Below are positions 2,788-22,713 of a stretch of DNA of 64,000 nucleotides, one piece after another. The stretch comes from an uncultured bacterium (GTDB lineage Bacteria; Edwardsbacteria; AC1; EtOH8). Numbering within the stretch: the stretch's first letter is position 1; each line of letters begins with the position of its first letter. The notes below the pieces were generated by a model, which was given only the letters and a program-made list of their open reading frames with translations, was not told the DNA's origin and did no database searches. The translations under genes were made by a program, and so were the position numbers. The stretch lies in NCBI GenBank assembly GCA_964518765.1, contig CAZFJC010000004.1:60518-124517 (forward strand), read 5' to 3'.

Positions 2788-5700
2788 ATGTTCAAAGAGA
2801 TACTCCTTTTCGAGCTGACCTACCGTCTCAAGAAGCTCTCCACCTGGATCTACTTCGGCGGCGTCTTCGCCATGGCCTTCCTGGCCATCCTCGGGGCCGG
2901 CGGGGTGCTGGGCAGCGGCAACGTCGTCCTCGGCGACGCCTCGGGCAAGGTTTACCTCAACTCGCCGCTGACCATCTACCTGCTCTGCGGCTTCATGGCC
3001 TACTTCGGGATGCTGGTGGTCTCGGCGGTCATGGCCGGCGGCATCGTCCGCGACTTCGAGCACGGCTCCCACCCCTTCTTCTTCACCAAGCCGGTGACCA
3101 AGCTGGCCTACCTGGGAGGCCGGTTCCTGGGCTCCTTCGCCGTGCTGGTGATGATCTTTTCGGCCTCCGCCCTGGGGGCCATGGCGGCCACCTCGCTGCC
3201 GGTGTTCGACAAGGCCCTCATCGGCCCGTTCAATCTGATCTACTATGTCTGGCCCTATCTGGTCAGCGTCGTCCCCAACCTCTTCCTGATGGCCGCCGTC
3301 TTCTTCGGTCTGACCATCCTTTTTCGCAAGCTGATGCCGGTCTACGTGGCCGCGGTAGTGCTCTTTTTGGGGTACCTGATGGCCTCCAACATGATCGCCG
3401 TCATCGAGAACCGCACCCTGGCGGCGCTGATCGACCCCCTGGGCATGACCGCCGGGGTAGTGACCGCCTTCAGGTACTGGACCATCGCCGAGAAGAACAC
3501 CCGACTCATGCCCCTGGAGGGCCTGTTCCTGCTCAACCGGGCCGTCTGGCTGCCGCTGGCCGCGGCCTTCCTGGCCCTCTCCTTCCGGATCTTCCGCTTC
3601 TCCCAGTTCGCCCCCGGCCTCAAACCCCTGCGGAAAGCAGGTGGCCCTGAGCCCGAATCCCCCGGTCCCGCGGCCCCGCCGGCCGCCATCCCCATCGAAA
3701 AGAGCTTCGGGGCAAACGACCGGCTGCGCCTGCTGGGCGGCGGGGCCTGGCGGGAGTTTTTGGCCGTGTCCGGCAACGTCTACTTCGGGGTGATACTGAT
3801 CTTCGGCGTGCTGTTCGTGCTGGTGAACGCCAAGAACCTGGGCCGGATGTACGACACCGACGTCTGGCCGGTGACGGCCATGGTCACCGAGAACTTCAGC
3901 GGCATGTTCGTCATCTTCGTGATGATCATCCTCACCTTCTTCTCGGGCGAGGCCGTCTGGCGCGAGCGCGACCGCCGCTCCAGCCAGATCCTGGACGCCA
4001 TGCCCGTGCCCGGCTGGCTGCCGCTGGCCTCAAAGCTTCTGGGCCTGGCCCTGGTAATGGCCCTGCTGATGGGGGTGCTGATGCTGGCCGGCATGGCCTA
4101 CCAGGCCTTCTCCGGCTACTTTCGCTTTCAGCCCGGGCTCTACCTGGCCGACCTCTTCGCACTCCGCCTGCCCGATTTCCTCCTGCTGGTGGCGCTGACG
4201 GTATTCGTCCACGTCATGGTGGACAACAAGTACCTGGGCCACTTCGCCATGATCGGCTACTACCTGTTCACCGCCTTCATGTCCCAGTTCGGGCTGGAAC
4301 ACGGCATCTACCGGTTCTCCTCGGACCCGGGCTATCGCTACTCCGACATGAACGGCTACGGCGGCTACCTGCCCGGCTTCCTTTCCTTCAAGCTCTACTG
4401 GGCGGCCCTGGCCGGCGTCCTGGCCGTCGTCGCCTACCTGTTCATGGTCAGGGGCACTATGTCCTCTTTCCGGGAGAGGCTGGGCCTGGCCCGGCGGCGG
4501 TTGACCAGGCTGGCCGCCGTCTCCCTGGCCGTCTTCGCCGCCTGCTTCGTCGCCCTCGGGGCCTGGATCTACTACAACACCAACGTCCTCAACATCTACC
4601 GCTCCCGTTCCGATCAGGAAAGGCTGCAGGCCGAGTACGAGAGGTTATATAAAAAATATGAGGCCATGCCCCAGCCCCGGATCGTGGCCGCCGAGGTGTC
4701 GGTGGATTTCTACCCCGAACGCCAGGCGGTGTCCCTGGCCGGAAGTTTCGTTCTCAAGAACAAGGCCGCCGTTCCAATCGACACCGTGTTGCTTTCCATA
4801 CCCAAGGAGGAGCTGGTCATCAGGAAGCTGGCCTTTGACCGGCCCTTCAGGCAAACGCTGTCCGACCGCCCACGGGGCTTCGCCGTCTACGCCCTGGAGA
4901 AGCCTCTGGCCCCGGGCGATTCCATATGCCTGGATTTCGAGGTCTCCTGCGCCATCCGCGGCTTCCGCAGCTCGGGCCTGAACACCGACCTGGCCAGGAA
5001 CGGAGCCTTCGTCAACAACAAGGATTACCTGCCGTCCATCGGCTACCAGGAGCAGGCGGAGATATCGAGCGACCGGGAGCGCAAAAGGCAGGGCCTGGCG
5101 CCCAAGGCGCGGATGGCCCCGGTCGGCGACTCGCTGGCCAGCATGAACACCTACATCGGCAACGACGCCGACTGGATACGCTTCTCCTGCACCGTGGGCA
5201 CCGACAGCGGCTATACAGCCCTGGCGCCTGGTTATCTGGAAAAGGAATGGTCGGAGGGCGGGCGACGCTACTTTCGCTACTCCATGGACAGCCCCATCTT
5301 CAACTTTTACTCCTTCCTCTCGGGAAAATGGAAGGTGGCCCGGGACTCCTGGAAAGGCGTGGCCATTGAGGTCCACCACCATCCGGACCACGTTTACAAC
5401 GTAGGTCGGATGATCGAGGCCGTCAAGCGTTCGTTGGACTACTACACCGCCAACTTCGGCCCCTACCAGCACCGGCAGGTGCGGATCATCGAGTTCCCCC
5501 GCTACCAGGTCTTCGCCCAGAGCTTCCCCAACACCATACCCTATTCCGAGGCCATCGGCTTCATCGCCCGGGTGGACGAGGGGAAAAGGGACGAGGTGGA
5601 CTACGTCACCTGGGTGACCGCCCACGAGGTGGCCCACCAGTGGTGGGCCCACCAGGTGATAGGCGGCAACGTCCAGGGGGCCACCCTCCTGTCCGAGGTC

Positions 5701-6450
5701 CTGGCCCAGTATTCGTCGCTGCAGGTGCTGCGGGCGACCCACGGCGAGGCCGCCCTGCGCAAGTACCGCCGCTACGAGCTGGACGAGTACCTGGAGGGCC
5801 GGGCCAACGAGCGCAAGAAGGAGGTGCCGCTGGCGCTGGTCGAGAACCAGGGCTACCTGCACTACAACAAGGGCGCCATCGTGATGGACGCCCTGCGCGA
5901 GTATGCCGGCGAGGCCCGGCTCAATGCGGTGCTGGCGGCGTTCGTGCGCGACTACAAGTTCCAGCGGCCGCCTTTCGTCAATTCGCCGGTGTTCATGCGG
6001 TACCTCCGAGCCGCCATCCCGGACTCACTGCAGTACCTGGTGCGCGACTGGTTCGAGGACATCGTGCTCTACGATAACCGGGCGCTGTCGGCCACGCGGG
6101 AGCAGCTTCCCGACGGCCGCTGGCGCGTCACGGCCGTCATCGCGCTGCGCAAGCTGCGGGCCGACAGCCTGGGCGGCGAGACGGTCCTGCCGCTGTGGGA
6201 CTACGTCCCGGTGGCGGCGCTGGGACGGGGCGACAGCGTGCTGGCCCGGCGGATGGTGCTGGCCGACCGCGACACGCTCACCGTGGAGCTGGAAAGCGTC
6301 GGCGAGCCGCTCAAGGCGGGCATCGACCCCGAGTACTACCTGATCGACAAGCGGCCGGAGGACAACCTGGCCAAGTGCGGCGGCGGCAAGGGCCCGGCCG
6401 AGAAGGAGGGCCGCTCCGGCGGCGTCCACATTGGCGTCACCATCGACTGA
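2788..6450 (+). CDS. ABC-2-type permease fused to a C-terminal M1-like zinc aminopeptidase
   Basis: Two multi-TM halves followed by a soluble domain with HEVAH, distal Glu (LLSEVLAQY) and YNKG. Confidence 0.9.
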   Translation: MFKEILLFELTYRLKKLSTWIYFGGVFAMAFLAILGAGGVLGSGNVVLGDASGKVYLNSPLTIYLLCGFMAYFGMLVVSAVMAGGIVRDFEHGSHPFFFTKPVTKLAYLGGRFLGSFAVLVMIFSASALGAMAATSLPVFDKALIGPFNLIYYVWPYLVSVVPNLFLMAAVFFGLTILFRKLMPVYVAAVVLFLGYLMASNMIAVIENRTLAALIDPLGMTAGVVTAFRYWTIAEKNTRLMPLEGLFLLNRAVWLPLAAAFLALSFRIFRFSQFAPGLKPLRKAGGPEPESPGPAAPPAAIPIEKSFGANDRLRLLGGGAWREFLAVSGNVYFGVILIFGVLFVLVNAKNLGRMYDTDVWPVTAMVTENFSGMFVIFVMIILTFFSGEAVWRERDRRSSQILDAMPVPGWLPLASKLLGLALVMALLMGVLMLAGMAYQAFSGYFRFQPGLYLADLFALRLPDFLLLVALTVFVHVMVDNKYLGHFAMIGYYLFTAFMSQFGLEHGIYRFSSDPGYRYSDMNGYGGYLPGFLSFKLYWAALAGVLAVVAYLFMVRGTMSSFRERLGLARRRLTRLAAVSLAVFAACFVALGAWIYYNTNVLNIYRSRSDQERLQAEYERLYKKYEAMPQPRIVAAEVSVDFYPERQAVSLAGSFVLKNKAAVPIDTVLLSIPKEELVIRKLAFDRPFRQTLSDRPRGFAVYALEKPLAPGDSICLDFEVSCAIRGFRSSGLNTDLARNGAFVNNKDYLPSIGYQEQAEISSDRERKRQGLAPKARMAPVGDSLASMNTYIGNDADWIRFSCTVGTDSGYTALAPGYLEKEWSEGGRRYFRYSMDSPIFNFYSFLSGKWKVARDSWKGVAIEVHHHPDHVYNVGRMIEAVKRSLDYYTANFGPYQHRQVRIIEFPRYQVFAQSFPNTIPYSEAIGFIARVDEGKRDEVDYVTWVTAHEVAHQWWAHQVIGGNVQGATLLSEVLAQYSSLQVLRATHGEAALRKYRRYELDEYLEGRANERKKEVPLALVENQGYLHYNKGAIVMDALREYAGEARLNAVLAAFVRDYKFQRPPFVNSPVFMRYLRAAIPDSLQYLVRDWFEDIVLYDNRALSATREQLPDGRWRVTAVIALRKLRADSLGGETVLPLWDYVPVAALGRGDSVLARRMVLADRDTLTVELESVGEPLKAGIDPEYYLIDKRPEDNLAKCGGGKGPAEKEGRSGGVHIGVTID

Positions 6451-16417: not shown

Positions 16418-17188
16418 GTGATTTCCTGGCATACCTACGCCATCATCCTTCCGGCCGTCTTCTTCGCCGGGGTGGTCGATTCCATGGCCGGGGGCGGCGG
16501 CCTGATCTCCCTGCCCGCCTACCTGGCCGCCGGCCTGCCGCCACACTTTGTGCTGGGCAACAACAAGTTCTCCTCCTGCTTCGGCACCTTGTTCGCTACC
16601 GCGCGTTTCCATCAGGAGAGGATGATCGACCTGCCGGTGGCCTTGACCTCGGCCGTCGGCGCCCTGGTCGGCTCCTTTCTGGGGGCCAGGGCAGTGATGC
16701 TGGTCGATCCCGGCTTTCTCCGCTACGTGCTGATTGTCTTGGTTCCGGCCATCACCGTCTTCAGTTTTCTCAAGGGGGATATGGGTAGCCGCAACCTCTC
16801 CGGCTCGGTGCCGACCGCCCGAAAGAACCTGCTGGCCGCCCCAGCGGCCCTGGCCATAGGTTTCTACGACGGCTTCTTCGGGCCGGGCACCGGCACCTTT
16901 CTCATCATGTTCTACGCCCTGGCGCTCAAGTACGACCTGGTGACGGCCAACGCCAACACCAAGGTGGTCAACCTGGCCTCGAACCTGGCCGCCTTGGCCG
17001 CCTTCGTGGCCGGGGACAAGATTTTCTACACCATCGGCCTGCCGGCCGCAGCCTGCGGCATCGCCGGCAACCTCCTGGGCTCTCGGCTGGTCATCAGGGA
17101 GGGAAACCGGGCCATCCGCCCGGTCTTTCTGGGAGTGCTGGTCCTGCTTTTCGCCAAGATAGCCTATGACCTTGCCATCGGACGTTAG
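16418..17188 (+). CDS. TSUP (TauE/SafE) family membrane transporter
   Basis: AGVVDSMAGGGGLISLP, GFYDGFFGPGTGTFL, NLASNL. Confidence 0.92.
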   Translation: MISWHTYAIILPAVFFAGVVDSMAGGGGLISLPAYLAAGLPPHFVLGNNKFSSCFGTLFATARFHQERMIDLPVALTSAVGALVGSFLGARAVMLVDPGFLRYVLIVLVPAITVFSFLKGDMGSRNLSGSVPTARKNLLAAPAALAIGFYDGFFGPGTGTFLIMFYALALKYDLVTANANTKVVNLASNLAALAAFVAGDKIFYTIGLPAAACGIAGNLLGSRLVIREGNRAIRPVFLGVLVLLFAKIAYDLAIGR

Positions 17189-17594
17189 ACCACTCAGGCT
17201 GGAGCCCGAGGATTTTTGGAGGCTGGTGGACCGGGCGGTGGCCGACCTGCCCGAGATGTTCCGCCAAAAGCTGGAGAACATCTCCATAGCCGTGGAGGAT
17301 TATCCGTCGGACGAGGTCTTGGGCTCGCTTCGCCCCCGACCGTCCCGTGACTCCCTTTTGGGGGTTTACATCGGAGTCCCCTACACCGCCCGGCCCGGGT
17401 TCCCCGTCTCCGGCATGATGCCCGACCGCATCGAATTGTACCAGCGCAACATCGAGGGCATCTGCCGCACCCGGGATGAGGTGGTGGAGCAGGTGCGACA
17501 GACCATCATCCACGAGATCGGCCACTACTTCGGGCTGGACGAGAAAACCCTGCGAAGGCTCGAGTCCGGCCGCCGCCGGAGCAAAGGTCCCTGA
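17166..17594 (+). CDS. Zincin_1-like small metallopeptidase family protein
   Basis: LLGVYIGVP, PDRIELYQRNI, IIHEIGHYFGLDE. Confidence 0.88.
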   Translation: MTLPSDVRPLRLEPEDFWRLVDRAVADLPEMFRQKLENISIAVEDYPSDEVLGSLRPRPSRDSLLGVYIGVPYTARPGFPVSGMMPDRIELYQRNIEGICRTRDEVVEQVRQTIIHEIGHYFGLDEKTLRRLESGRRRSKGP

Positions 17595-17650
17595 GCCCAG
17601 CGTCTCCGCCTTCCTTCCCGGCAAAAGATCTTCGATTTAGTTAATAATAT

Positions 17651-17679
17651 TGAAACCCCGGCGGCCCCGGCAGCGTATT
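17651..17679 (+). promoter_or_regulatory. ECF (SigW-like) promoter upstream of the small ORF
   Basis: TGAAAC-N17-CGTATT. Confidence 0.55.
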
Positions 17680-17732
17680 CTCCTTTGAGGACGGACAGCG
17701 AAGAAAAACACAAAAACATAAAGGAGAAAGCC

Positions 17733-17825
17733 GTGAAGAAGCTGTTGGAGAACCAAAGGGTTGATTGGGGAGGATTGATCCCCCTGGCGACCCTGGTCGG
17801 ACTCTTCCTGATCTCGATAATCTGA
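17733..17825 (+). CDS. Small single-pass membrane peptide (30 aa), not in the ORF track
   Basis: SD AAGGAG, GTG start, MKKLLENQRVDWGGLIPLATLVGLFLISII*, own terminator. Confidence 0.6.
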   Translation: MKKLLENQRVDWGGLIPLATLVGLFLISII

Positions 17826-17844
17826 AATCGCCTGTCTGGCCCTA

Positions 17845-17875
17845 GGGGCCGGGGAACATCCCCGGCTCCCTTTTT
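17845..17875 (+). terminator. Rho-independent terminator
   Basis: GGGGCCGGGGA-ACA-TCCCCGGCTCC-C-TTTTT. Confidence 0.75.
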
Positions 17876-17879
17876 GTAT

Positions 17880-17909
17880 TTGACAGGCTTTCAATCATGG
17901 TGCTATACT
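17880..17909 (+). promoter_or_regulatory. sigma70 extended -10 promoter, probably leaderless ECF sigma mRNA
   Basis: TTGACA-N18-TATACT with TG at -15/-14; 5 nt to ATG; no SD. Confidence 0.7.
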
Positions 17910-17914
17910 AGTTT

Positions 17915-18481
17915 ATGGCCTTCGAGCAGGAAGATTCCATACTGGTCGGACGCTGTCTCTCCGGCGACAATTCCGCCTTCGACAGGCTTATCAGCCGGTA
18001 CAAAAGACAGGTTTTTACCGTCATCTACCGCATGGTGCGCAATCCGGCCGATGCCGATGACCTGGCCCAGGACACCTTCATCAAGGCCTACCGGGCCCTC
18101 TCATCCTATGATCCCAAATACCCGTTCATCACCTGGCTTTTCAAGATCGCCCACAATACGGCCATCGACCACCTGCGCGCCAACAGGGCCCAAATCCTAT
18201 CCATGGACGACGAGGATAGCCCGGTGGAGGATGAATGCGCCGACGAGAAGCTGATGGATTCGATCGACGGCCTGTCGGATAAGTCAATGATCGAGAAGGC
18301 CTTATCTGCCTTGCCGGCCACCTATAGGGAGATTTTAACCCTCAGGCACCAACAGGAATTCTCTTATGCCGAGATCTCGCAGATCTTGGGGTTACCCGAG
18401 GGAACGGTGAAGATTCGTCTTTTTCGGGCTCGCAACATGATGAAGGACAAATTGTTGGCCTTGGGATATCTGGGAGCTTGA
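17915..18481 (+). CDS. ECF RNA polymerase sigma factor (SigW/RpoE-like)
   Basis: DADDLAQDTFIKAY, WLFKIAHNTAIDHLR, FSYAEISQILGLPEGTVKIRLFRAR. Confidence 0.95.
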   Translation: MAFEQEDSILVGRCLSGDNSAFDRLISRYKRQVFTVIYRMVRNPADADDLAQDTFIKAYRALSSYDPKYPFITWLFKIAHNTAIDHLRANRAQILSMDDEDSPVEDECADEKLMDSIDGLSDKSMIEKALSALPATYREILTLRHQQEFSYAEISQILGLPEGTVKIRLFRARNMMKDKLLALGYLGA

Positions 18482-18509
18482 TGAAACTTTTGCCTATTCA
18501 CCACGTATT
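18482..18509 (+). promoter_or_regulatory. ECF (SigW-consensus) promoter between sigma and anti-sigma
   Basis: TGAAAC-N16-CGTATT starting one base after the sigma stop codon. Confidence 0.65.
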
Positions 18510-18528
18510 ACTAAGTGAAGGAACAAAG

Positions 18529-19107
18529 ATGACCTGCGAACAGATAAAAGACTCCCTGCAGGGTTTGATGGACGGCACCCTGAGCCAGGGGGAAAAGGTT
18601 TTCGTCAAGCGGCACCTGAAATCCTGCCCCTCCTGCCTGAACGAGTTCCGCCTTCTGCGCCAGATCTCCTCCAGCCTTTCCCGGCTGCCTGTATACGAGC
18701 CCGGGCCTGATTTCAACCGGAGCGTTTTCCATCGTTTGGGGCTCGAATACCGGCCCTACCGCCAGCCCGTCTGGATCAGGCTGGCCATGGCTGCTGGCAC
18801 CAGTCTGGCCCTGTTCTGGCTGGCCGCTTTGGCCGTGGCCCTGCCGACGCTGCTTGTCGGCTCCAAGGCCTACAAGCTGGCCCAATGGGTGCACCACCCG
18901 GAACGGATTCTCTCAGCGCTTCAGGCCGCAGTTGTGGAAACAGGTTTGTCGCTTTACCAGACCTTTGCTTTCGCCGCCAAGGCCTCCGGCTGGCTCCTAA
19001 AGTTGTCGGCCCTGCCCGCCCAGCTGGCCGTGGCCAGCCTGCTGGCCTTCGGTCTGATCCTTTTAGCCTTCAAGGGGCTTAAGCCCGGAATAATTCTGTC
19101 GAAATAA
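18529..19107 (+). CDS. Zinc-finger (zf-HC2/ZAS) membrane anti-sigma factor
   Basis: MTCEQI...HLKSCPSC, two hydrophobic segments. Confidence 0.88.
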   Translation: MTCEQIKDSLQGLMDGTLSQGEKVFVKRHLKSCPSCLNEFRLLRQISSSLSRLPVYEPGPDFNRSVFHRLGLEYRPYRQPVWIRLAMAAGTSLALFWLAALAVALPTLLVGSKAYKLAQWVHHPERILSALQAAVVETGLSLYQTFAFAAKASGWLLKLSALPAQLAVASLLAFGLILLAFKGLKPGIILSK

Positions 19108-19129
19108 ACCATTCTATAAGGAGAAAAGT

Positions 19130-20278
19130 ATGCGCACCGACAGTGGGAAAAGCAAAGTGGCGGCCGCGGCCATCGCCCTTCTAGCCGCCGTCTTCACGGC
19201 CGGCCCGGCCTGTGCCCAGCCGGAGAAGATCGACGTCAAGGTGGGCGGGAAGTCTCTGGCGGTGGAATCCAAGGACGTCCACGTCGGCGATGTCTACGTG
19301 GCCTCCAGCGACACCTTCAGCGGCGATCTGGTGGCCAAAAGCGGCACGGTGACGGTCGACGGGGTGGTGGACGGAGATTGCGTCAACTTCGGCGGGTCCA
19401 TGGTGATAAACGGCCAGGTGCTGGGCGTAGCCGCCGTGTTCGGCGGCCCGGTCCAGGTGAACGGCAGCATCGAGGAGGACCTGGCGGCCTTCGGCGGGCC
19501 GGTCACCGTTTCCGGAAAGGTGGGCGGCGAGCTGGCCTCGTTCGGCGGCCCGGTCAAGCTTCTGGCCACAGCCGTGGTGGACGGTGACATTTCGGTCATG
19601 GGCGCCCAGGTGGAGCGTTCGGACAGCGCCCAGGTAAAGGGCGAGATAACAAACATCAGCCTGGGGATGATGAACCGCTTCCTGCCGGGCGCGGTCAGCG
19701 TCGTCCAGACGAAGACTCCACTCCTGAGGCTCACCCGGTTCTTCATCGCCCTGGCCTGGGTGGCGGCCTCGGCTCTGCTGGTGTTGTTGACCGCCCTCTT
19801 CTTCCCCCGCAGCGTCGAACGCATCGCCCGGGCGGTGGAGCTGGACATCTGGAAGTCGGTGGGCGTGGGCCTACTGGCCCAGGTGGCGGTCATCCCCGGC
19901 ATCATCTTGATGGCCATCTCCATCCTGGGCATCCCGCTCATACCCCTGGCCATTCTGGCCTTTATCGCGGCCGCCATCCTGGGCTTCGCCGGATTCTGCC
20001 TGTTGGCCGCCCAGAGGCTTTTCGCCGCCTGGCGCCGGCCGGCCGCAGGTATCGTGCCCCTGGTCATGATAGGATTTCTGGCCCTGAACGCGCTTCTTCT
20101 GGCCGGACACCTGATCAACATCCCCGGCGCGCCGTTCAACATTCTGGGCTGGATACTGGTTATCGCTAACTTTTCGTTGCTGTGGTTCGCCTCCACCGTC
20201 GGGCTGGGCGCGGTCTGGTCCACCCGGTTCGGCTCCCGCGACGAAACGGCGCCGACGGCCCCGGTGGCCAAGGCCTAG
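19130..20278 (+). CDS. Exported bactofilin-like beta-helix domain plus multi-TM anchor
   Basis: Signal peptide, repeated FGG.V...G.V.GD units, then about 5 TM helices. Confidence 0.8.
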   Translation: MRTDSGKSKVAAAAIALLAAVFTAGPACAQPEKIDVKVGGKSLAVESKDVHVGDVYVASSDTFSGDLVAKSGTVTVDGVVDGDCVNFGGSMVINGQVLGVAAVFGGPVQVNGSIEEDLAAFGGPVTVSGKVGGELASFGGPVKLLATAVVDGDISVMGAQVERSDSAQVKGEITNISLGMMNRFLPGAVSVVQTKTPLLRLTRFFIALAWVAASALLVLLTALFFPRSVERIARAVELDIWKSVGVGLLAQVAVIPGIILMAISILGIPLIPLAILAFIAAAILGFAGFCLLAAQRLFAAWRRPAAGIVPLVMIGFLALNALLLAGHLINIPGAPFNILGWILVIANFSLLWFASTVGLGAVWSTRFGSRDETAPTAPVAKA

Positions 20279-20302
20279 CCTTTTTGACTTAACGGCATGA
20301 AG

Positions 20303-20331
20303 AAAGCTCTCCGCCGAAGGCGGGGAGCTTT
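20303..20331. terminator. 13-bp hairpin, weak terminator or mRNA stabiliser
   Basis: AAAGCTCTCCGCC-GAA-GGCGGGGAGCTTT. Confidence 0.55.
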
Positions 20332-20357
20332 GCCCAGCTGCAAAGAAGGAGCCTGTC

Positions 20358-21701
20358 ATGCAGAGGAGAATATCAACGATAATTACGGCTTTGGCCCTGG
20401 CGGTCCTTTTGCCGGTCCGTCTCATCGCCGATGATACGGCTTTCAACCGCTCGGTGCCGGTGACCGCCAACACCACCATCAGGCTGGACTGCCGCGTGGC
20501 CAAGTTGAGCCTAACCGACGGGCAGGGCCAGGACTTGGTTATCTCGTCCAGCGGATCGCCGGAGCCGGTGATTTCCATCTCCGAATCGCTGGTTACCGTA
20601 ACCGTCCCGGAGCCCGAGCTCAAACGGCGCGGCCCGGAGCTGAAGATCTCCCTGCCGCGTCTGGCCAGCATCCGAGTCGACATCGATGTCGGTAACCTGG
20701 ACATAGTCGGCCTGGCCGGCCGGCTGGAGGCCAAGGTCGGGGTCGGAGATGTATCCCTGTCGGGCGTCTCCGGCCAGGTATTGGTCCGGACCGGCACCGG
20801 CAACATCAGGGCCAGCTGGGCGGCCGGCCAGGAGTTACCCGACCAAAGCAGGCTTACGGCCGGCATTGGCGACATCCGGGCGGCGCTTCCTTCTGATGCC
20901 GATTTGAGGATTGCGGCTGAGACCGGCCTGGGCAGCATCCGCGGCCTTGGGCAACAAGGGAACGGCGATGGCCCCCGCACATTGTTCCTTTCAACCGGCA
21001 TCGGAGACATTCGGGTCAGTCGGGATGGAAACGGCGATGAGACATTGCCCGGAGACCGCTGGCGTGAGCGCCGTCATCAGCCTGCCCGAGGGATCTACGG
21101 AGGCGGTGGCGGCTTTTTCGTGTCCTGGCCGGACCGCTCCTACCGTGATATCAACGCCGCCACCTCGGGCCACGGCTACCCGGCTGTGAAGAAAGAGAGC
21201 TATGCCTGGGGAGGCGAGGGCTATGCCCAGTTCAACAGGTTCCGCATAGGCGGCATGGGCTGGGGGAACCAAATCGAATCACGTTCTTCCTTATCTGACA
21301 CCATAAGGTACACTACATGTAACTATAGTTTCGGAGGCCTTACCCTAGAATACGTGGTGCTCAGGTCTTCTCGGGCCGATCTCTCCCTGGGCGCCATGCT
21401 GGGCGGCGGGGGCTCGGAGATCAAGCTGGCCAAGGCTAGGAAATCCGATATCACCTGGGACGAGGCGGCCGCTTTAGAGGATTATCGCGAGGTGGCGCTC
21501 AAAGCCTCCGGTTTGGCGGGCATGCCCTTGGCCAGGTTCAAGTTAAGGCTCCTGAGCTGGCTGTCCCTGCAGGGCCAGGCCGGCTATCTCTATTACCGGG
21601 CTGATGATTGGAGATATCGGGATGACGAGGATCTGTTCAATCCCCCGCGATTAGACGCATCCGGCTGGACCTTCGCCGTCGGGCCGCATATCGGATTTTA
21701 A
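20358..21701 (+). CDS. DUF4097-like beta-strand-repeat domain fused to a C-terminal outer-membrane barrel
   Basis: Signal peptide; repeated D.G.GD/N.. units; aromatic-rich barrel-like C-half ending PHIGF. Confidence 0.7.
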   Translation: MQRRISTIITALALAVLLPVRLIADDTAFNRSVPVTANTTIRLDCRVAKLSLTDGQGQDLVISSSGSPEPVISISESLVTVTVPEPELKRRGPELKISLPRLASIRVDIDVGNLDIVGLAGRLEAKVGVGDVSLSGVSGQVLVRTGTGNIRASWAAGQELPDQSRLTAGIGDIRAALPSDADLRIAAETGLGSIRGLGQQGNGDGPRTLFLSTGIGDIRVSRDGNGDETLPGDRWRERRHQPARGIYGGGGGFFVSWPDRSYRDINAATSGHGYPAVKKESYAWGGEGYAQFNRFRIGGMGWGNQIESRSSLSDTIRYTTCNYSFGGLTLEYVVLRSSRADLSLGAMLGGGGSEIKLAKARKSDITWDEAAALEDYREVALKASGLAGMPLARFKLRLLSWLSLQGQAGYLYYRADDWRYRDDEDLFNPPRLDASGWTFAVGPHIGF

Positions 21702-21719
21702 AAACGTGGAAAATGGCGC

Positions 21720-21767
21720 TTGACAAAAGCGCTGTTTTCTTGTATAATAACTTTGTTTTGTAAAGTT
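21720..21767 (+). promoter_or_regulatory. Consensus sigma70 promoter with overlapping palindromic operator
   Basis: TTGACA-N17-TATAAT followed by AACTTT-N7-AAAGTT (21749-21767). Confidence 0.75.
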
Positions 21768-21794
21768 CTCTGTTATCTTAAGGAGACGTTGAAC

Positions 21795-22424
21795 ATGGAT
21801 CCCAAGACCGCACAGGAGAATCTGGCCTTCATTCGCAATATCATCGCCGACAGCCGCCGGATGGCTGTAGACATCGGTCTGGATTACATCGTCTGGGGCC
21901 TTTTGGTCTCCGCCGGCATGTTCGCCACTGTCGCGCTGGAGATGCTGAAGATGCAGGGCCATGTCTACCTCTGGCTCTGGATCGCCGTCATGGGCTGCGG
22001 CTGGGCGTTTTCGCTGGCGCGGCAACTGAAGAAAAAATCAACCCAAGCCGTCCACACCCTGTCCGGCTCCATCCTCAAATCCCTCTGGCTATCGTGCGGG
22101 ATCGTCATCATGCTTTTCATCTTCGTGGGCGGCCCGCTTCTGCGGCAGAGCCTTACCCCGGCCATCGCCGCGGTGCTGGGCATCGGCTACCTGGTTTCCG
22201 GGAGGCTGCTCGATTTCACCTATTTTAAGATATCTGCCATCGCGTTCTGGGTCGGTTCGGCCGCCATGTTTTATCTGAAGAGCCAGTCGGGACAAGCTCT
22301 TTTTACCGGCATCCACGCCGACATTCTTCTCTTCGCCGTGATGCTGGTGCTGTTCCAGACCCTGCCGGGCATCATCCTCTACCGCCGCTGGCGCCGGGGG
22401 CAGGGGGAAACGTCCCGTGCCTGA
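21795..22424 (+). CDS. Hypothetical multi-pass membrane protein
   Basis: SD AAGGAG before ATG 21795; A.ENL.FIR.II opening; about 6 TM segments. Confidence 0.85.
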   Translation: MDPKTAQENLAFIRNIIADSRRMAVDIGLDYIVWGLLVSAGMFATVALEMLKMQGHVYLWLWIAVMGCGWAFSLARQLKKKSTQAVHTLSGSILKSLWLSCGIVIMLFIFVGGPLLRQSLTPAIAAVLGIGYLVSGRLLDFTYFKISAIAFWVGSAAMFYLKSQSGQALFTGIHADILLFAVMLVLFQTLPGIILYRRWRRGQGETSRA

Positions 22425-22713
22425 TTTCGATTACACCCAACTGGACGACATCATCCACTCCCGCATCCGGCTGGCGGTGATGGCTGTCCTGGTGGGGGTG
22501 GAGGCAGCCGAGTTCACCTTCCTGCGCGACAAGGTGGGAGCCACCGACGGCAACCTCTCGGTACACCTCAAGAAGCTGGAGGACGCCGGATACGTCACGG
22601 TAGACAAGCGCTTCGTTGACCGCAAGCCGGTGTCCTCCTACAGACTTACCGCCAAGGGAAGGAAGGCTTTTGAATTGTATGTTGAAAGACTGGAAAGAAT
22701 AATCCATATATAA
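22417..22713 (+). CDS. Winged-helix transcriptional regulator (MarR/ArsR-like)
   Basis: IIHSRIRLAVM, ATDGNLSVHLKKLEDAGYV, YRLTAKGRKAF. Confidence 0.9.
   Translation: MPDFDYTQLDDIIHSRIRLAVMAVLVGVEAAEFTFLRDKVGATDGNLSVHLKKLEDAGYVTVDKRFVDRKPVSSYRLTAKGRKAFELYVERLERIIHI

Follow-up and report, generated by a model that had tools for sequence, protein, structure and literature searches.

The 64-kb window analysed here, read on its forward strand, carries at positions 17651-21701 a gene cluster organised around an extracytoplasmic function (ECF) sigma factor. It is most closely related to Candidatus Edwardsbacteria and UBP2 bins, and its DNA was detected in digester, wastewater, and sludge metagenomes. 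A gene for a zincin-like protein (17166-17594) precedes P1 (17651-17679, +), a candidate ECF promoter placed before the gene of a 30-amino-acid (aa) single-pass membrane peptide (17733-17825, +). This short unit is closed by a predicted intrinsic terminator (17844-17880, +), which abuts a predicted housekeeping (sigma-70-type) promoter (17880-17909, +) and then the gene of the sigma factor itself (17915-18481, +; 188 aa). A second candidate ECF promoter, P2 (18482-18509, +), lies where the sigma gene meets that of a predicted membrane anti-sigma factor (18529-19107, +). Further downstream are encoded a bactofilin-like membrane protein (19130-20278, +) and a putative outer-membrane protein with a DUF4097 domain (20358-21701, +). 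ECF-type promoters flank the sigma gene, and the promoter directly before it is of the housekeeping type. This arrangement, which recurs in related genomes, points to a sigma factor that would induce its own inhibitor and not itself.

P1 consists of TGAAAC (17651-17656), a 17-nt spacer, and CGTATT (17674-17679). P2 consists of TGAAAC (18482-18487), a 16-nt spacer, and CGTATT (18504-18509), and begins one base past the sigma stop codon (TGA 18479-18481). The combination of TGAAAC at -35 with CGTA at -10 is a sigma-W type motif (PMC5758882). Scanning both strands of the window for TGAAACN{16,17}CGTA returned exactly these two matches, compared with a mean of 0.07 among 100 dinucleotide shuffles. 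Both sites are intergenic, lie on the coding strand, and face a gene with a Shine-Dalgarno sequence. The first-pass annotation, made from the letters of this DNA, had reported the two flanking sites and their SigW-type consensus, a membrane peptide whose transcript ends in a terminator, and a sigma-70 promoter before the sigma gene. All of these readings held up in the analyses described here.

The positions of the motifs, which the same annotation had proposed to check in other genomes, were compared across 11 orthologous loci of Edwardsbacteria/Elusimicrobia type. Eight of these are syntenic and were found via bactofilin-like homologues, three via sigma searches, and the identity of their sigma factors to the window copy ranges from 79% to 46%. 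P2 is present in all 11 loci (as CGAAAC in some, and with GTAAC in locus L278), and P1 together with the small open reading frame (ORF) occurs in 10 of them, upstream of sigma and on the same strand. The hexamers are kept, while the spacers share nothing. In locus L081, ~180 nt are inserted between the sigma stop codon and P2, which remains 19 nt before the anti-sigma start.

A wider survey covered 160 loci, each built around a relative of the sigma factor and together amounting to 1.1 Mb, with 151 loci counted for downstream and 146 for upstream sequence. Of the 151 loci, 96 have the strict motif, [TC]GAAAC-N16/17-CGTA, at the junction 3′ of sigma; the spacer measures 17 nt in 86 of them and 16 nt in the other 10. 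Thirteen of 146 loci have the motif upstream of sigma at a distance of at most 400 nt, and elsewhere in the 1.1 Mb it matched five times on the plus and once on the minus strand. An ORF of at least 100 aa begins at a median of 22 nt past the CGTA (90 loci). A relaxed pattern recovered the junction motif in 68 of 80 genome loci. The loci carrying it belong mainly to Acidobacteriota, Gemmatimonadota, and Edwardsbacteria, and those lacking it are almost all from Verrucomicrobia, Bacteroidota, Proteobacteria, Thermomicrobiales, and Auribacterota.

These figures leave very little room for the idea that both motifs are chance matches or have a function other than that of promoters, which we regard as highly improbable. 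In its favour, one of the 100 shuffles likewise reached two matches, and transcript 5′ ends are absent from the RNA contigs described below. Against it stand hexamers fixed in position amid fully diverged spacers in the 11 orthologous loci, the excess of junction occurrences over six background matches, and the placement of CGTA-type sites on the correct strand, 19-60 nt before start codons bearing Shine-Dalgarno sequences. That P1 and P2 behave like real promoters across genomes is supported by this comparison of sequences.

The sigma factor displays the Pfam domains Sigma70_r2 (E 7e-23) and Sigma70_r4_2 (E 5.5e-19) and no further domain, which places it among the ECF (group IV) sigma factors, and it matches NCBIfam TIGR02937 with 127.5 bits (cut-off 42.9). 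Its best NCBIfam match is SigW (equivalogs NF007223/TIGR02948; 138.8 vs 209 bits and 125.7 vs 243.1). It is not classed as a SigW orthologue because 138.8 bits falls short of the 209-bit equivalog cut-off, and its score against RpoE (133 bits) is below the 236-bit cut-off of that model. The nearest solved structures by sequence are AlgU (6in7), SigW (5wuq), and RpoE (1or7). Judged by these matches, this is a SigW/RpoE/AlgU-like sigma factor and the orthologue of no named one.

The promoter of the sigma gene reads TTGACA-N18-(TG)cTATACT, matches 11 of 12 consensus positions, carries the TG extension, and has a -10 element that ends 5 nt before the ATG at 17915. The same layout, with TTGACA-N17/18-TATACT at a distance of 5-6 nt from the sigma ATG, recurs in eight of the 11 orthologous loci. 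The sigma gene is also the only gene of the locus without a Shine-Dalgarno sequence, and its mRNA appears from this spacing to be leaderless. Directly in front of it there is no ECF motif; the sole upstream one, at 17651, is separated from it by another gene and a terminator.

This terminator consists of a GC-rich hairpin (17844-17871; -27.9 kcal/mol, z-score -4.0) followed by a T-run, which in the window merges directly into the TTGACA of the sigma promoter (17872-17885). A hairpin follows the small ORF in all eight loci folded, with arm sequences that vary among loci, energies of -19 to -36 kcal/mol, and T-runs in most of them; those of L275 and L278 are weak. The distance from the terminator to sigma varies from ~45 nt to >300 nt owing to insertions. 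Some of the insertions are inverted repeats resembling miniature inverted-repeat transposable elements, on the terminator-sigma side in L001 (4640-4830) and L082 (3830-3960) and on the sigma-P2 side in L081 (1120-1280), and they share a core of the type 'ggattccc...gggaatgaca'. Meanwhile, the sigma/anti-sigma junction holds no hairpin or terminator (z +1.3), so that transcription from the housekeeping promoter should proceed into the anti-sigma gene.

The peptide of the upstream unit (VKKLLENQRVDWGGLIPLATLVGLFLISII) is encoded from a GTG start preceded by the Shine-Dalgarno sequence AAGGAG. Its 12 copies in relatives are each exactly 30 aa long and retain a D-W-G-G-L-I-P core, and the pairwise differences at codon positions 1/2/3 amount to 59/28/98, a coding-type pattern. 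Because of this constant length, the conserved core, and the predominance of third-position changes, we take the ORF to be a real gene, although the peptide has no match in Pfam or NCBIfam. In locus L280 (2800-3140), two such genes stand in tandem upstream of sigma, each with its own CGAAAC-N17-CGTAGTAT promoter.

The gene that follows P2 starts 47 nt 3′ of the sigma gene. Its product contains a zinc-binding-type N-terminal domain (HLKSCPSC, with the H-x3-C-x2-C pattern) that matches Pfam PF13490 zf-HC2 (E 2.5e-9, 37.5 bits, cut-off 22.2), while scores against the NCBIfam anti-sigma models stay under their cut-offs. We predict from this domain and from the gene order that the protein is an anti-sigma factor which inhibits the neighbouring sigma.

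The next protein combines an N-terminal anchor or signal helix, a beta-helix, and a membrane bundle of about six helices. It scores 23.3 bits against Pfam Bactofilin PF04519, below the cut-off of 27.9 that one orthologue reaches exactly. Its AlphaFold2 model has a mean pLDDT (predicted local distance difference test) of 82, and the fold matches to bactofilins are weak (2n3d, E 0.07; 6rib, E 0.18, target-normalised TM-score 0.63). The membrane bundle found no solved relative in the fold search. The fusion of a beta-helix domain to a membrane bundle sets this protein apart from the cytoskeletal bactofilins. Homologues are encoded downstream of sigma in 75 surveyed loci from several phyla, and literature searches for bactofilin-like proteins tied to ECF systems returned nothing relevant.

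The last protein of the cluster has a signal peptide, a Toastrack (DUF4097) domain, and a C-terminal small beta-barrel of OmpA/Ail type, and ends in Phe. It falls below the Pfam cut-off for DUF4097 (19.8 vs 22.9 bits), and its NCBIfam match is LiaG-like. In its AlphaFold2 model (mean pLDDT 62), the N-terminal domain reaches ~80-88 and the C-terminal half is less confident. Foldseek matched the N-terminal domain to the Toastrack structures 4qrk (E 1.8e-8) and 3pet (E 1.5e-7), which assigns it to this fold, and the C-terminal half to the barrels of OmpA, Ail, and NspA. The protein seems to be lineage-specific, as only 10 homologues were found, and our searches found no description of a Toastrack domain fused to an outer-membrane beta-barrel. 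The annotation had named the three downstream genes as anti-sigma, bactofilin-like, and DUF4097 genes and had taken the host for a diderm; the domain matches agree with the names, and the fold matches with envelope proteins of a bacterium that has an outer membrane. From these domain families, we infer a possible role in envelope repair.

Based on these findings, we consider it probable that the locus encodes an ECF sigma/anti-sigma envelope-stress module with negative feedback and without direct self-activation. Housekeeping RNA polymerase would start on the A of the sigma start codon or no more than one base away from it, which would make the sigma mRNA leaderless, and this transcript would extend into the anti-sigma gene, providing basal co-expression of sigma and anti-sigma. 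P1 and P2 would both be read by the ECF sigma encoded here. P1 would produce a short terminated transcript for the 30-aa membrane peptide, and P2 would drive the genes of the anti-sigma factor and the bactofilin-like membrane protein, and probably also that of the Toastrack outer-membrane protein. Upon inactivation of the membrane anti-sigma, the freed sigma would increase the levels of the peptide, of the envelope proteins, and of its own inhibitor, but not of itself. Since the sigma would induce its inhibitor only, negative feedback should dominate, resulting in a graded response and a fast shut-off, without self-amplification or memory. The absence of positive autoregulation had been put forward in the first-pass annotation as well. 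The conserved housekeeping-type promoter, the lack of an ECF motif directly upstream, and the terminator separating sigma from P1 speak for that claim. Such wiring is not unusual in kind.

A number of observations weigh against this circuit, and some of them concern the possibility that sigma is, in fact, fed by P1. L081 and L279 lack an obvious housekeeping promoter before sigma, so that sigma in these two loci may depend on read-through from P1. Contigs from eight public metatranscriptome runs, placed on the locus, are of read length, at a depth of 2-3, and provide no usable 5′ ends. Among them are contigs from the sigma gene, from its junction with the anti-sigma gene, and from the genes further downstream, with the P1/peptide region represented in one run only. 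Two of them, X14 (17410-17941) and X22 (17846-18006), cross the peptide terminator into the sigma gene and may be read-through RNA or contaminating DNA. As they cross the terminator, the insulation of the sigma gene is unproven and some read-through feedback is possible; as DNA carry-over is possible too, they neither confirm nor refute insulation. The terms 'constitutive' and 'insulated', used for sigma expression in the annotation, are accordingly left as unproven. Co-transcription through to the DUF4097 gene is, in addition, assumed across a strong hairpin (20303-20331).

These data raise the alternative of an indirect positive autoregulation, in which RNAs from P1 leak through the terminator into sigma, and the peptide gene and its terminator act as an attenuating leader. 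The two contigs spanning the terminator and the sigma start, the two loci without a recognisable promoter in between, the same-strand position of the peptide gene upstream of sigma in 10 of 11 loci, and the weak T-runs of L275 and L278 would all fit it. We nevertheless judge it unlikely. The hairpins are strong over their whole range of energies and T-runs follow them in most loci, a near-consensus sigma-70 promoter stands just 3′ of the terminator in eight of 11 loci, and L001, L082, and L278 tolerate insertions of hundreds of bases, inverted repeats included, before sigma. The RNA contigs, for their part, are shallow and may include carried-over DNA, and one of them starts inside the zincin gene, before P1.

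A further weakness of the direct negative-feedback circuit is that the motifs are assigned to this sigma, and not to a paralogue, by linkage only. P1 and P2 could be real ECF promoters read by a different ECF sigma of the same genome. AAC/CGT-type motifs are common to many ECF groups and overlapping recognition is documented in B. subtilis (PMC5758882), the visible part of the genome is 64 kb, and the window has a third ECF-like site, at 1714, whose -35 is of another type and reads GGAAC in relatives. Such cross-regulation appears improbable to us. The junction motif accompanies this sigma family over at least four phyla and is near-absent elsewhere in the surveyed sequence, the two linked sites of L278 share the same variant, and no other ECF sigma gene was found within the 64-kb window. 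In L278 (about 2650-2700 and 3550-3600), both ECF promoters have GTAAC, not GAAAC, at -35. The region 4.2 helix that recognises DNA was examined for a compensating substitution and proved identical to that of relatives, in spite of the GTAAC sites; this variant is therefore only suggestive of a sigma-site pairing.

The last point against a general absence of self-activation comes from the wider family. An ECF motif lies directly upstream of sigma in 10 of 13 Gemmatimonadota loci and in the Elusimicrobia locus L281, which shows that the family can autoregulate and that self-activation is lineage-dependent.

The proposed circuit has well-described counterparts in Corynebacterium glutamicum. There, the sigH-rshA operon is transcribed from four housekeeping promoters and rshA alone from a further, SigH-dependent one, an arrangement for which a rapid shut-off was proposed (PMC3489674). 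As for sigD-rsdA, 37 of 38 Corynebacterium species have kept the PrsdA promoter, and related genera instead have the promoter upstream of sigD (PMC6338062). Both systems have a vegetative sigma promoter, co-transcription of sigma and anti-sigma, and an ECF-dependent anti-sigma promoter; the present locus matches them, at the level of sequence, in its housekeeping-type sigma promoter and its ECF-type promoter before the anti-sigma gene, and co-transcription is predicted. The lineage-dependent placement of the sigD-rsdA promoter is likewise reminiscent of the Edwardsbacteria and Acidobacteriota loci as opposed to those of Gemmatimonadota and Elusimicrobia. The systems differ in that C. glutamicum circuits belong to another ECF clade and other phyla and use GGAA/GTT or GTAAC/CTCGAT motifs in place of TGAAAC/CGTA. 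Only in the window would P2 also drive envelope proteins, and only here are a second ECF promoter, a peptide gene, and a terminator found upstream. The apparently leaderless sigma mRNA is a further difference, as is the fact that the circuit described here is known from its sequence. The topology itself is, by this comparison, not new, and the locus adds a well-conserved case of a known circuit type. As the topology is documented in Corynebacterium, the gain is one of breadth and detail and not of principle.

The annotation had set the locus against the notion that most ECFs activate themselves. Autoregulation is predicted for only about 55% of ECFs, i.e., about 45% are predicted not to be autoregulated (PMC8103513). 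The contrast was overstated, as the same wiring is known in Corynebacterium. ECFs are usually pictured and mined as self-activating, whereas in these poorly studied phyla, judging by sequence, a conserved target promoter precedes the inhibitor. Regulon prediction in this clade should thus seek motifs at the sigma/anti-sigma junction, and not upstream of the operon. What we find noteworthy are the cross-phylum junction promoter, its occurrence within coding sequence, the apparently leaderless sigma mRNA, and the small peptide that would be ECF-driven.

Other known systems resemble the locus in part. In B. subtilis, YvlB and YvlC have DUF4097 and PspC domains, and DUF4097 and PspC proteins are encoded downstream of this sigma gene or those of its relatives. 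The yvlABCD operon belongs to the core sigma-W regulon of that species (PMC3498285). SigW-RsiW (ECF01) has the same TGAAAC/CGTA promoter type (PMC5758882) and a membrane anti-sigma of the zinc-finger type. It differs in that sigW activates its own expression through a promoter before sigW-rsiW, which has no equivalent directly before the sigma gene here, in that the present sigma is not classed as a SigW orthologue, and in that the present host has an outer membrane. Escherichia coli RpoE-RseA and Pseudomonas aeruginosa AlgU-MucA provide the closest structures and are envelope-stress ECF systems that share outer-membrane hosts and a membrane anti-sigma encoded directly downstream. Unlike the present locus, the rpoE promoter is autoregulated (PMC8103513), RseA is not of the zf-HC2 type, and RseB/RseC homologues, absent here, are part of the system. 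The Psp/Lia systems have the Toastrack fold in common with the locus (4qrk, 4opw), and in relatives this place in the operon is taken by PspC and LiaI-LiaF-TM genes. They differ in that no PspA/LiaH or LiaRS is found here and in the outer-membrane beta-barrel to which the Toastrack domain is joined here. Operons joining Toastrack proteins to a sigma factor have already been described (PMC11237479), and the main text of the ECF re-classification paper names neither bactofilin nor DUF4097.

In many Acidobacteriota and Gemmatimonadota loci (e.g., L034; L040, 5572-5600), the junction promoter sits inside the reading frame of sigma. There, GCTGAAACC, which contains the -35 element (GCT GAA ACC), encodes residues A-E-T of the C-terminal tail, and the CGTAG of the -10 includes the stop codon TAG. 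In other loci, a TGA stop codon forms the first three bases of TGAAAC. The Acidobacteriota gene between sigma and the homologue of the bactofilin-like protein has no zinc motif. BLASTP of the window anti-sigma against this second gene of the Acidobacteria loci was not significant, and hhalign aligned the Edwardsbacteria anti-sigma with it in the linker and membrane part only (88.7% probability, E 2.6e-6). Given this restriction of the match, the anti-sigma role of the Acidobacteriota gene stays inferred.

A broader scenario can be offered as a tentative conjecture, one that we think may well prove wrong. The junction promoter would define a multi-phylum ECF clade comprising Acidobacteriota, Gemmatimonadota, Edwardsbacteria, and Elusimicrobia, often lying within the last sigma codons and the stop codon, and would drive a conserved pair of membrane proteins, one anti-sigma-like and the other with a beta-helix. 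Feedback through the anti-sigma only would be ancestral, self-activation would be an addition of some lineages, and the leaderless sigma mRNA and the ECF-restricted 30-aa peptide would be extras of Edwardsbacteria. If true, the target motif of the whole clade would have escaped promoter-prediction pipelines that presume self-activation.

The restriction of the peptide to ECF transcripts is suggested by a short element directly past the -10 of P1. This element, TTCTCCTTT (17678-17686, +), is the exact reverse complement of the Shine-Dalgarno sequence of the peptide gene, AAAGGAGAA (17720-17728). The pairing is present and invariant in seven of seven aligned relatives, with 35-40 nt of unrelated sequence in between, and no covariation was found among the seven aligned sequences. 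The element is conserved at P1 only, and P2 sites are devoid of it. It may act as an anti-Shine-Dalgarno element of the peptide gene. If transcription starts ~9 nt past the CGTA, only read-through RNAs from upstream would carry the element, and peptide translation could then be limited to mRNAs started by the ECF sigma; in the Edwardsbacteria version of the circuit, the anti-Shine-Dalgarno would lie just upstream of the ECF start. An extended P1 pattern, TGAAACN{16,17}CGTATTCTCCT, was also searched genome-wide and discarded, as its 114 matches fall across unrelated taxa and we estimate that ~140 would arise by chance. The sole relevant match among the 114 is the known Edwardsbacteria contig.

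Collectively, the beta-helix membrane protein and the 30-aa peptide are pointed out as unstudied components of envelope stress. The locus also represents a compact set of parts, namely two ECF-type promoters, a putatively leaderless housekeeping promoter, and a terminator.

Other features accompany the cluster. Between the bactofilin-like and DUF4097 genes there is a perfect, GC-rich hairpin of 13 bp without a T-run (20303-20331, +; z -3.2), which may be a partial terminator or an RNA stabiliser and may cause expression to differ within the operon. A hairpin with a U-run (21704-21743, +; -19.2 kcal/mol, z -5.5) is the predicted operon terminator, and its loop holds the TTGACA -35 element of the sigma-70 promoter of the next operon (21720-21748, 12/12 match). 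In distant relatives, the DUF4097 slot is held by PspC-domain and LiaI/LiaF-like membrane proteins (L279, 5791-6441; L280, 5894-6085), followed in L279 by two M16 peptidases. An Rfam scan of 17400-21900 gave no family at threshold, and PADLOC defence models gave zero matches.

The operon adjoining the ECF locus (21795-22713) encodes a multi-pass membrane protein of 209 aa with no family match and an HTH_34 winged-helix regulator, and its position is kept in L275-L278 and L282. At the other end of the window, the intergenic site GGAAAC-N17-CGTAGT (1714-1745) lies 32 nt before an ABC-transporter ATPase gene (1777-2676), 3′ of which is the gene of a 1220-aa fusion of a permease with an M1-peptidase-like domain (2788-6450). 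The UBP2/Edwardsbacteria relatives L283-L285 have an ECF-type motif at the equivalent place, with GGAAC as the -35. This site may represent a further member of the regulon or the target of a second ECF, and the GGAAC flavour in relatives suggests that a second ECF specificity exists in these genomes.

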